A stretch of 32,000 bases of DNA. Origin: an unidentified eubacterium SCB49 (GTDB taxonomy: Bacteria; Bacteroidota; Bacteroidia; Flavobacteriales; Flavobacteriaceae). Each line of letters begins with the position of its first letter. Position 1 is the first letter of the stretch. A program made the position numbers and the translations under genes. The stretch covers positions 292,810 through 324,809 of the forward strand of contig ABCO01000002.1 in the NCBI GenBank assembly GCA_000170815.1, written 5' to 3'. Shown here one piece after another: positions 443 through 1,357 of the stretch. The notes under the pieces are model-generated. The model saw only the letters and a program-made list of their open reading frames with translations, was not told where the DNA came from and searched no databases.

Positions 443-578
443 GCTAACTTAAGCCGTATATAATTTATTGCTAGCTTCTCGCCTACTTACGAAAGTCCTC
501 GCGGACTTTCTTTGTCCGTAATGATTTACTAAATTAGTTGCTTGAAACACGCAACAAACCATATACAAACACGTTACC
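443..578 (+). repeat. T1-family attC-like repeat, copy a
   Basis: GCTAAC(443-448)..GTATATA ... central hairpin gaaagtcc-tcgc-ggactttc (491-510) ... ctaaattagttgc ... side hairpin gttgc-N9-gcaac (537-555) ... CATATAC..GTTACC(573-578). It aligns along its length with the copies at 1227, 4122, 4784, 7891 and 10313. Confidence 0.75.
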
Positions 579-587
579 TGCAAGCTT

Positions 588-650
588 GACCCGTCCTGAA
601 TAAAGGCTACATAATGTTTAAAAGTATGTAGCCTTTATTCAGGACGGGTC
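588..650. repeat. Perfect 26-bp inverted repeat with an 11-nt loop (63-nt hairpin/cruciform)
   Basis: Positions 588-613 (gacccgtcctgaataaaggctacata) are the exact reverse complement of 625-650. Loop is atgtttaaaag. It starts directly after the CAAGCTT motif that follows repeat T1-a. Confidence 0.9.
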
Positions 651-777
651 ATTTGAAAAAAACGTTTGTACATCAAATATTAACGTTTAATATGCCAAAC
701 TGAACGCTTACTAATTTAGTGTTTGAGAGCAAAAAATAACTAATAGATTTGAAAAATAATCTAAACCAAATGAAAAT

Positions 778-1134
778 ATGAAAACTGAAAAAACCCTCTC
801 AAAAATACTAATGTGGCTACCTTCACTAATAATCACTCTTTTCTTTATTCCAAACGCATTAGATAAAATATTTAATTCAAGTCAAACCGACAAAATTGTT
901 GCGAATAGCTCTGTAATGATAGCAACTGGAATATTTCTCTTAATTTCAACAGCATTATTTTTATACAATAAAACAGTACTTATCGGAACTATTCTTTTAG
1001 CATTTTATATGACCTTTATAGTGTTTATTCATATGTATAAAGGAAAACCATACGAAGTTGCAATTCTAATTGTTATGGCTACAATATTTGCATCGTACAT
1101 AAGAAAATCGAACTTATATTATCAAAATAAATGA
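778..1134 (+). CDS. Small 4-TM membrane protein, DoxX-like
   Basis: 118-aa ORF with an ATG start and four hydrophobic segments. Size and topology resemble the DoxX family. It is bounded by T1 repeats. Confidence 0.6.
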   Translation: MKTEKTLSKILMWLPSLIITLFFIPNALDKIFNSSQTDKIVANSSVMIATGIFLLISTALFLYNKTVLIGTILLAFYMTFIVFIHMYKGKPYEVAILIVMATIFASYIRKSNLYYQNK

Positions 1135-1226
1135 TAAAACTAATCTTTCATTTACAATGTAAAATGGATATAACAGCTGAAATTGACATTCTTACAGCAG
1201 ATGAACTAAGTAAGTGAAAAAACGTT

Positions 1227-1357
1227 GCACAACACCGGGTATAATTCATTGCTAGTTCTAGCCTACCTGGAAATTCCTTCGGAATTTTCTCTGGTTCGTT
1301 TTAGTTTACTAACTTAGTTGCTTAACCACGCAACAAATCATATACAAAAACGTTGGC
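1227..1357 (+). repeat. T1-family attC-like repeat, copy b
   Basis: CACAAC..GGTATAA ... central hairpin gaaattcc-ttc-ggaatttt(c) (1270-1289) ... ctaacttagttgc, side hairpin gttgc-N8-gcaac (1317-1334) ... CATATAC..GTTGGC(1352-1357), then CAAGCTT. Confidence 0.75.

Follow-up and report, generated by a model that had tools for sequence, protein, structure and literature searches.

We analyzed a stretch of 32,000 nucleotides (nt) from the flavobacterium deposited as unidentified eubacterium SCB49 (positions 292810 to 324809 of contig C24 in genome G000; 3.2 Mb, 34% G+C), hereafter the window. Positions 1-13,725 of the window carry about 14 co-oriented open reading frames (ORFs) on the plus strand, each followed by a structured repeat. 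Six of these repeats are copies of a single sequence type, T1, and the remaining ones belong to a second type, T2, which has the same terminal boxes (5' YAAC-N-GTATATA ... CATATAC-N-GTTR 3') around a different interior; we refer to the outer YAAC and GTTR boxes as R'' and R' and to the arms inside them as L'' and L'. From sequence comparison, T1 is probably the commonest sequence type of attC-like site by which an integron-like system of the Flavobacteriaceae closes its mobile gene cassettes. The complementarity between neighboring sites, a cassette shared with another genus, and the presence of a recombinase gene at the heads of arrays show that the T1 elements are recombination sites.

A profile built from the six window copies identified 34 copies in the genome at E < 1e-6 (nhmmer), and a covariance model, R1, produced 42 matches. 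The copies are distributed over several arrays on contigs C24, C23, C17, C25, C11, and C21 and are also found at contig ends. Beyond this genome, T1-type sites were present in 119 of 150 other Flavobacteriaceae genera, approximately 80% of the genera sampled, and no R1 sites were found beside recombinase homologues outside the Flavobacteriaceae. Three alignments underlie the structural analyses. A1 contains 27 genomic copies in the bottom-strand orientation, that is, the strand antisense to the ORFs, on which R1 was also built; A2 comprises 121 sites collected with R1 from 402 kb of arrays, including this genome and the loci of recombinase homologues from about 20 other genera; and A5 includes 51 sites aligned with MAFFT without reference to structure. 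Because A2 was fitted to R1, the outer (R) and inner (L) helices were tested again on A5.

The junctions between cassettes follow a common grammar. The bases beyond the R'' core of a site, immediately before YAAC, pair with the bases after GTTR of the preceding site, with a mean of 5.19 matches out of 8 and scores of at least 6 in 47 of 79 pairs, compared to a mean of 2.50 with the R' of the same site and 2.58 for random pairs, 3% of which scored at least 6. The fourth core base (G or A) covaries with the previous site and not with its own. Within the window, the transitions from T2-A to T2-B and from T2-B to T1 copy c each match at 10 of 10 positions: the bases after R' of T2-A (GTTGCCCACA) complement R'' of the site that follows (TGTGGGCAAC, 2824-2833) without a mismatch, and the tail after R' of T2-B (GTTGCCAGTA) exactly complements R'' of copy c (TACTGGCAAC). 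The R''/R' complementarity, exact over about 7 nt following GTTR, extends to approximately 10-11 nt; sites could be chained by 10-mers beginning at GTTR but not by exact 11-mers, since pairing is usually missing at the seventh base past the core. Complementarity across the boundary is expected if the cassettes are circles whose site opens at GTT. The R' box is a hybrid, as at the attC crossover, and the crossover would lie within GTT.

The same boundary was recovered from a cassette common to two genera. The DinB-family cassette of the window (4262-4806) is 94% identical at the DNA level (513 of 548 positions, blastn) to a cassette in another genus (locus L044, genome G134), with the homology starting in the R' box of T1 copy c (CG[C/T]TGG) and extending into the 5' arm of copy d. 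Upstream of the shared cassette, the two genera carry L boxes of different subtypes (alignment A4).

An array on contig C23 of the same genome is headed by a gene for a 292-amino acid (aa) tyrosine recombinase (C23:376245-377123), co-oriented with the cassettes and the only recombinase of this kind in the genome. The gene is followed by a cassette, a T1 site, a second cassette, and a second T1 site, with more cassettes up to the contig end. Located 80 nt past the recombinase stop codon is an attI-like sequence, with GTATATAAACAA before and GTTGGCAAA after the crossover mark (GTTGGCA following the mark), the tail of which complements R'' of the first C23 T1 (TTTGCCAAC). Its location beside the recombinase gene at the head of the array suggests that it may function as an attI site. 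Homologues of the recombinase, sharing 40-63% identity, are encoded in 104 of the 150 other genera. Among 20 loci fetched, 15 contained T1-like sites on the strand of the gene in its downstream flank, and two more had repeated downstream elements only. Chains linking GTTR to its complement begin 30-160 nt past the recombinase stop codon in Winogradskyella and Gilvibacter and are also present in some other Bacteroidota, including Aquiflexum and Pontibacter.

Alignments to solved Xer and IntI structures showed that the catalytic motifs of tyrosine recombinases are conserved in the C23 protein. The best-scoring model was that of the archaeal-type XerA (NF040815; 216 bits versus a cut-off of 220), and the closest solved structures were also those of XerA. 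Scores with the two IntI models were below the respective cut-offs, namely 183 versus 265 bits for TIGR02249, in two pieces skipping profile positions 178-243, and 110 versus 435 bits for PRK15417. When the protein is aligned with VchIntIA (2a3v), its residues 198-219 (22 aa) stand opposite residues 183-248 (66 aa) of IntI4, the place of the insert that defines integron integrases. Judging by these comparisons, the recombinase is Xer/XerA-like and not IntI. Most of its relatives possess about 90-100 additional aa at the N-terminus, a conserved region that matches nothing in Pfam (I.L.P..H......I.I.F.Y......IK......WS.T.K.FY), as exemplified by L040:695-1000 and L010-L031, and homologues from metagenome-assembled genomes (MAGs) of Bacteroidales are up to about 46% identical to the recombinase described here.

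The sequence-only reading of the window had described T1 as a branched, structured element with compensatory base changes, under selection as folded single-stranded DNA or RNA in the manner of attC-type recombination substrates. This observation is partly confirmed, because the compensation is real but the fold consists of a long stem with a hairpin-bearing interior. Read on the bottom strand, the structure supported by our analysis combines a central hairpin with two outer helices, an R box of 5 bp (CAACG/TGTTG) and an L stem of 18 bp that pairs the arms (in copy b, 1235-1252 with 1330-1347). In A2, 26 of 31 pairs displayed changes on both sides, 89% of cells were paired, and compensatory cells numbered 345, compared to 115 +/- 12 in shuffled alignments; the covariation score (0.291 versus 0.133) was reached by 0 of 500 shuffles, and slid controls scored about 0.05. 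The structure-blind A5 gave a consistent result for the R and L helices, with 91% of cells paired, 80 compensatory cells versus 27.5 +/- 3.9 in shuffles, and a score of 0.233 versus 0.117 that was likewise reached by 0 of 500 shuffles (slid controls, at most 0.084). The significance of these shuffle tests is overstated, because the copies are related to each other.

RNAalifold recovered the L stem unaided, and 15 of its 18 pairs contain compensatory changes in A2. Typical alternations are GTATAT/ATATAC, GTGTAT/ATACAC, and GGCTAT/ATAGCC, and one inner position is T-A, C-G, or A-T. The top-strand YAAC ... GTTR boxes are present in all intact copies, and the R box, CAACG/TGTTG, is 91% paired over the 121 sites, with its outer position alternating between CG, UA, and UG. 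On the bottom strand, the R box reads 5'-YAACG ... TGTTR-3' and is separated from the L stem by an asymmetric unpaired spacer, whose 5' part is about 5 nt and whose 3' part is about 2 nt long; columns 22:337 and 23:336 of the spacer are poorly paired in A2. The L stem contains three near-invariant G.T wobbles and encloses an interior of approximately 95 nt with a short hairpin of variable sequence.

The hairpin motifs quoted in the sequence-only reading were all found at 491-510 in copy a (gaaagtcc-tcgc-ggactttc), at 1270-1289 in copy b (gaaattcc-ttc-ggaatttt(c)), and at 10358-10373 in copy f (aaatc-N6-gattt), and the wider comparison bears out the proposed compensatory change in the central hairpin. 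Of 51 sites, 73% can form a stem of 7 bp or more at this position, compared to 5% of shuffles, and all seven pairs changed on both sides in A2. The stems include AAAATCC/GGATTTT, AAAGTCC/GGACTTT, AAATTCC/GGAATTT, and AATATTCC/GGAATATT; the variants in the covariation include GAAAGTCC/GGACTTTC versus GAAATTCC/GGAATTTC, among others. The side branches proposed in the same reading fared differently. Their motifs are indeed present, with GTTGC-N9-GCAAC at 537-555, GTTGC-N8-GCAAC at 1317-1334, and GTTG-N14-CAAC at 10397-10418 for the side hairpin, and taattta (461-467) and taaatta (530-536) for the pairing said to link the two arms. However, the covariation of the side hairpin (0.082) was indistinguishable from that of column shuffles (0.081; 217 of 500 reached it), as was that of taattta/taaatta (0.050 versus 0.052; 285 of 500). 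Both were therefore rejected as alternative helices; they also compete for bases with the L stem, a much better supported helix that the sequence-only reading had left undescribed. The term "branched" holds only loosely, in that one hairpin, or two in the types of some relatives, stands in the stem-enclosed loop, whereas the proposed side branches are unsupported.

The two strands of the sites are not equivalent. With DNA parameters, 107 of the 121 sites fold more stably on the bottom strand, by a mean of -2.7 kcal/mol, and the RNAalifold consensus energies for bottom versus top are -27.1 versus -13.8 with RNA parameters and -9.7 versus -4.7 with DNA parameters. A G.T wobble on the bottom strand corresponds to an A.C mismatch on the top strand. 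In A2, wobble-only cells numbered 617 for the bottom strand and 87 for the top (by column, 21 versus 5; sign test p = 0.0025), counts in which the fitting of A2 to a bottom-strand model favors the bottom strand; in the 27 copies of the genome itself, the numbers were 157 and 29. The bias is shared by variable positions, with 38 versus 1 at columns 31:327 and 34 versus 1 at 35:324. Taken together with the significant covariation and the independent evidence for recombination sites, the better folding of the antisense strand suggests selection on a folded single strand of attC type, as the sequence-only reading had anticipated. An alternative source of the same asymmetry would be a structured antisense RNA transcribed from the T1 bottom strand and regulating the cassette genes, which the wobbles fit as well. 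We consider this very improbable, given that T1 is not flanked by promoter or terminator features on the bottom strand, no Rfam family matches, and the boundary grammar, the attI-like site, and the linkage to the recombinase would be left unexplained.

In addition to the kinship of the copies and the fitting of A2 mentioned above, several observations weigh against T1 being an attC-like site that recombines as a folded single strand. The z-scores of single-sequence folding are modest (-0.04 to -3.4), with -3.4 for the bottom strand and -1.4 for the top strand of the best intact copy and about 0 for copy f; they are too weak to carry the case for the fold, which rests on the comparison between copies. 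The L stem has no conserved extrahelical base of the kind that the sequence-only reading had suggested looking for and that, in folded attC, directs strand choice and IntI binding. A lone bulged base occurs in one subtype, and the conserved features are instead the G.T wobbles and the asymmetric spacer. The recombinase lacks the insert that contacts extrahelical attC bases in the VchIntIA-VCR structure, and in this genome and its closest relative (G056), it is a short form without the N-terminal region of most homologues. Copy b folds equally on both strands. The array in the window may be inactive, because several of its copies have damaged boxes. Finally, the three invariant A.C/G.T positions could be explained equally well as asymmetric half-site contacts in duplex DNA and, because they never vary, do not demonstrate pairing.

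The last point belongs to an account that we regard as unlikely, in which T1 is used as duplex DNA or as an extruded cruciform, its palindromy reflecting two inverted recombinase-binding arms and its A.C/G.T positions serving as half-site contacts, as in dif/XerC/XerD. The Xer/XerA-like nature of the enzyme, without the IntI segment that reads folded attC, would fit such an account, as would the invariance of the three wobbles and the equal folding of copy b. However, over 100 bp separate the inverted arms, a distance that an ordinary duplex core site could not span; the transitions at the variable positions strongly favor bottom-strand pairing; an interior hairpin of changing sequence would be needless in a duplex site; and, in a cruciform, the top-strand hairpin would bear A.C mismatches.

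T1 could also be viewed as a selfish or regulatory intergenic repeat unrelated to cassette recombination, such as a repetitive extragenic palindromic (REP) or bacterial interspersed mosaic element (BIME)-like sequence, a miniature inverted-repeat transposable element (MITE), a terminator, or an RNA of the 3' untranslated region (3'-UTR). It is a dispersed, hairpin-forming intergenic repeat of about 40 copies, a few of which score as terminator-like, and insertion sequences (ISs) of the IS110 family, which are known to target REP sequences, insert into it (see below). Yet neither complementarity between neighboring sites nor a shared cassette starting at R' is expected for REPs or terminators, a T run is missing behind most T1 hairpins, and the better-pairing strand is antisense to the genes, whereas an mRNA terminator would need the other strand. 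Furthermore, a conserved recombinase gene precedes the arrays in different genera, and a search of the whole window against Rfam at gathering thresholds gave no match. We accordingly give this possibility little credence. A terminator role as such was rejected, with only two of the six T1 copies overlapping a terminator-like call.

Under the preferred reading of T1 as an attC-like site, the Xer/XerA-like recombinase encoded on C23 would recombine the folded bottom strand of T1-like sites, with the crossover in or at GTT of the R' box. The cassettes would be excised as circles and then inserted at the attI-like site (GTATATAAACAA followed by GTTGGCA), as in integrons, and the window array would be served in trans by the C23 recombinase, if at all. 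That this recombinase is the catalyst, that its substrate is single-stranded, and that the system is currently active are all three things that we infer.

The sites are recurrent targets of two IS110-family elements. IS-B is a 1.23-kb element encoding a 323-aa DEDD transposase, with copies at window positions 1-453, C24:285114-286345, C11:6022-7253, C17:120395-121645, and C21:89255-90485. In T1 and T2 sites alike, its insertion always separates the R'' box and spacer from the L'' arm and is always in one orientation (YAACA^[C/A]CGT, the caret marking the insertion point), and at least six genomic copies end in ...GCTAACTTAAG immediately before [C/A]CGT[A/G]TATA of a T1 or T2 site. In the window, IS-B occupies this position in T1 copy a (YAACA^CCGT), so that R'' of this copy is detached. 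IS-A is 1.26 kb long, encodes a 330-aa transposase, and is inserted at the mirror position in the other arm (CATACAC^AAACACGTT); its copies are located at C24:279667-280928, C24:286460-287719, C11:13540-14789, C23:379325 to the contig end, and C10:9359 to the contig end, and break the assembly inside arrays. The elements are reminiscent of the IS1111-attC group of IS110-family elements, reportedly described by Tetu and Holmes in 2008, in that an IS with a DEDD transposase sits in one orientation at a fixed position within cassette recombination sites. They differ from that group in being two distinct elements that enter the L-stem base at separate points, one at CATACAC^AAACACGTT and the other at YAACA^CCGT, and in that their targets are flavobacterial sites rather than classical attC. 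The 5' noncoding end of IS-B (window 231-453) is the place where a bridge or guide RNA would be sought.

The features of the window array are listed below. Neither a recombinase nor a remnant of one was found near this 13.7-kb array, tblastn identifying only the C23 gene and two XerC/D-like genes (27-32% identity). The array is therefore called an orphan; it is also partly decayed, with damaged boxes in copies c, e, and f and copy a split by the IS, and is comparable to CALIN, the integrase-less arrays of Cury et al. 2016 (PMC4889954). Its end abuts a convergent gene for an FMN-dependent dehydrogenase (13754-14902; Pfam FMN_dh); this ORF was examined as a candidate integrase and ruled out on account of that identity.

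Features of the cassette array in the window
Feature	Position	Strand	Remarks
IS-B, right part (IS110 family, 1.23 kb)	1..453	-	transposase N-terminus 3-230; Pfam DEDD_Tnp_IS110
T1 copy a	454..576	+	L'' arm, central hairpin 491-510, L' arm, spacer, R' GTTA 573-576; nhmmer E = 9.8e-37; 140.6 bits with R1, minus strand; folding -17.3 kcal/mol (bottom) vs -12.1 (top)
T1 copy b, intact	1230..1356	+	R'' CAAC 1230-1233; 5' arm 1235-1252; hairpin 1270-1289; 3' arm 1330-1347; R' GTTG 1353-1356; 128 bits with R1
T2-type site A	2001..2211	+	R and L boxes as in T1, longer and different interior; R1 match 1991-2223, E = 3.7e-5
T2-type site B	2830..3010	+	boxes read from sequence
T1 copy c, long type	4124..4266	+	extra palindrome CCCGATAGCTATCGGG; R' mutated to GCTG (CGTTGG at equivalent junction in another genus); 101.5 bits
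DinB-family cassette	4262..4806	+	Pfam DinB_2; common to another genus
T1 copy d, long type	4786..4926	+	intact R'' GTCAAC and R' GTTGAC; 108.1 bits
T2-type site C, short form	5513..5620	+	R1 match 5503-5632, E = 4.5e-4; boxes read from sequence
T2-type site D	6706..6895	+	boxes CAACAACGTATAA ... TATACACAACCGTTA; repeat families D5-D7
T1 copy e, long type	7893..8023	+	decayed 3' arm and R'; long stem absent on both strands; 61.4 bits
T2-type site E	8560..8719	+	5' arm decayed; R' GTTG 8716-8719; repeat family D6
T1 copy f, divergent subtype	10315..10438	+	AAGTAATT/TACTC arms; hairpin 10358-10373; R' mutated to CTTTGG; 98.2 bits; intact examples of subtype in relatives
Last array site, T2-type	13575..13725	+	R' decayed; repeat families D5 and D7

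Most cassettes of the window have no Pfam match, and the others encode DinB_2, DMP19-like, DUF6438, bPH_2, T5orf172, and aspartyl protease proteins. The DMP19-like protein cassette (8043-8543) has a counterpart of 57% identity in an array of Gilvibacter, and the 519-aa protein encoded at 8745-10304 has a C-terminal T5orf172/MUG113 (GIY-YIG-like) domain. The cassette at 1440-1990 is a decayed toxin-antitoxin cassette, of a sort common in chromosomal integrons: its 77-aa antitoxin-like ORF is 66% identical to an ORF from a Salegentibacter MAG, and in the ParE/RelE-like toxin gene behind it, a frameshift and stop codons interrupt the reading frame. A perfect 62-nt palindrome (GACCCGTCCTGAATAAAGGCTACAT...ATGTAGCCTTTATTCAGGACGGGTC) at 589-650, immediately after T1 copy a, recurs behind a T1 at C17:121792. 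The long-type copies c, d, and e carry an extra palindrome, CC(C/T)GATAGCTATCGGG, within the central hairpin (4180-4195, 4840-4855, and 7944-7957), the core of which (CGATAGCTATCG) is found outside arrays too, for instance three times in C16:48374-48829; this palindrome may be a small insertion of its own.

A detailed parallel is offered by the attC sites (59-base elements) of integrons, in particular by the Vibrio cholerae repeat (VCR)-type sites of sedentary chromosomal integrons, which are long and homogeneous in sequence. Both types of sites stand at the 3' end of each of a series of co-oriented, mostly promoterless cassettes and have inverted YAAC and GTTR core boxes around imperfect inner inverted repeats and a variable, sometimes hairpinned center; in both, compensatory changes keep the structure, the strand antisense to the genes folds better, and R' is a hybrid in which the bases after GTT belong to the next cassette. 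The likeness extends to the attI-like half-site adjoining the recombinase gene, the orphan arrays elsewhere in the genome, the fixed-point insertions of IS110/IS1111 type, and the decayed toxin-antitoxin cassette. The flavobacterial system differs in its recombinase, which has no IntI-specific insert and scores below both IntI cut-offs, and in the gene for it, which is co-oriented with the cassettes rather than divergent from them. The sites themselves differ in having conserved G.T wobbles and an asymmetric spacer instead of conserved extrahelical L-box bases, in an R''/R' complementarity of about 10-11 nt, and in the conservation of the site sequence itself across more than 100 genera. T1 sites match attC in mechanism and grammar, but two defining traits of integrons are missing, namely the IntI domain and conserved extrahelical bases; with a partner enzyme that is not IntI, they would be attC-like in mechanism without belonging to the classical family.

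Genome surveys have found almost no integrons in Bacteroidota, and, according to the integron view, it is the IntI-specific domain that enables a tyrosine recombinase to use folded single-stranded attC. Here, a family of sites with attC grammar occurs in about 80% of the sampled Flavobacteriaceae genera and is tied to a recombinase without that domain. If our reading is correct, the known range of integron-type gene capture widens, a concrete and testable model becomes available for the building of rAID-type arrays, and the T1 site model finds cassettes that current integron tools probably miss. Our literature search for flavobacterial integron-like arrays found no description. Surveys with IntegronFinder reported essentially no complete integrons in Bacteroidetes except in Salinibacter (10.1101/2022.02.28.482270), and their authors class recombinases without the IntI C-terminal signature as non-IntI.

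By architecture, the closest published system is rAID-1 of gut Bacteroidales, in which a 5' XerD-like recombinase gene is followed by co-oriented short genes with repetitive intergenic sequences "reminiscent of integrons" (Ross et al. 2019, 10.1101/471110). Its definition rests on a recombinase at least 44% identical to BF9343_RS08045 of B. fragilis and on a cargo of immunity genes, and its intergenic motifs were described only as MEME motifs (10.1101/471110); as late as 2025, its authors still regarded the mechanism of biogenesis as open (PMC12247911). The two systems come from the same phylum, both have arrays that often break assemblies, and in both, co-oriented genes with conserved intergenic repeats lie downstream of a recombinase gene, here on C23 and in most of the 20 loci of relatives. 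Identity to the protein described here reaches about 46% among Bacteroidales MAG homologues; the Bacteroidales MAG locus L094 was left out of the comparison with rAID-1, its downstream sequence being too short. The cargo may be different, consisting here mostly of orphan proteins (DinB_2, DMP19-like, DUF6438, T5orf172, and aspartyl protease). We give an even chance to the broader proposition that recombination of folded single-strand hairpins is not exclusive to IntI and that a Xer/XerA-like enzyme reads T1 through its wobbles and spacer, in which case the flavobacterial arrays and rAID-1 would form one phylum-wide gene-capture superfamily, either invented independently or related to integrons as a pre-IntI form.

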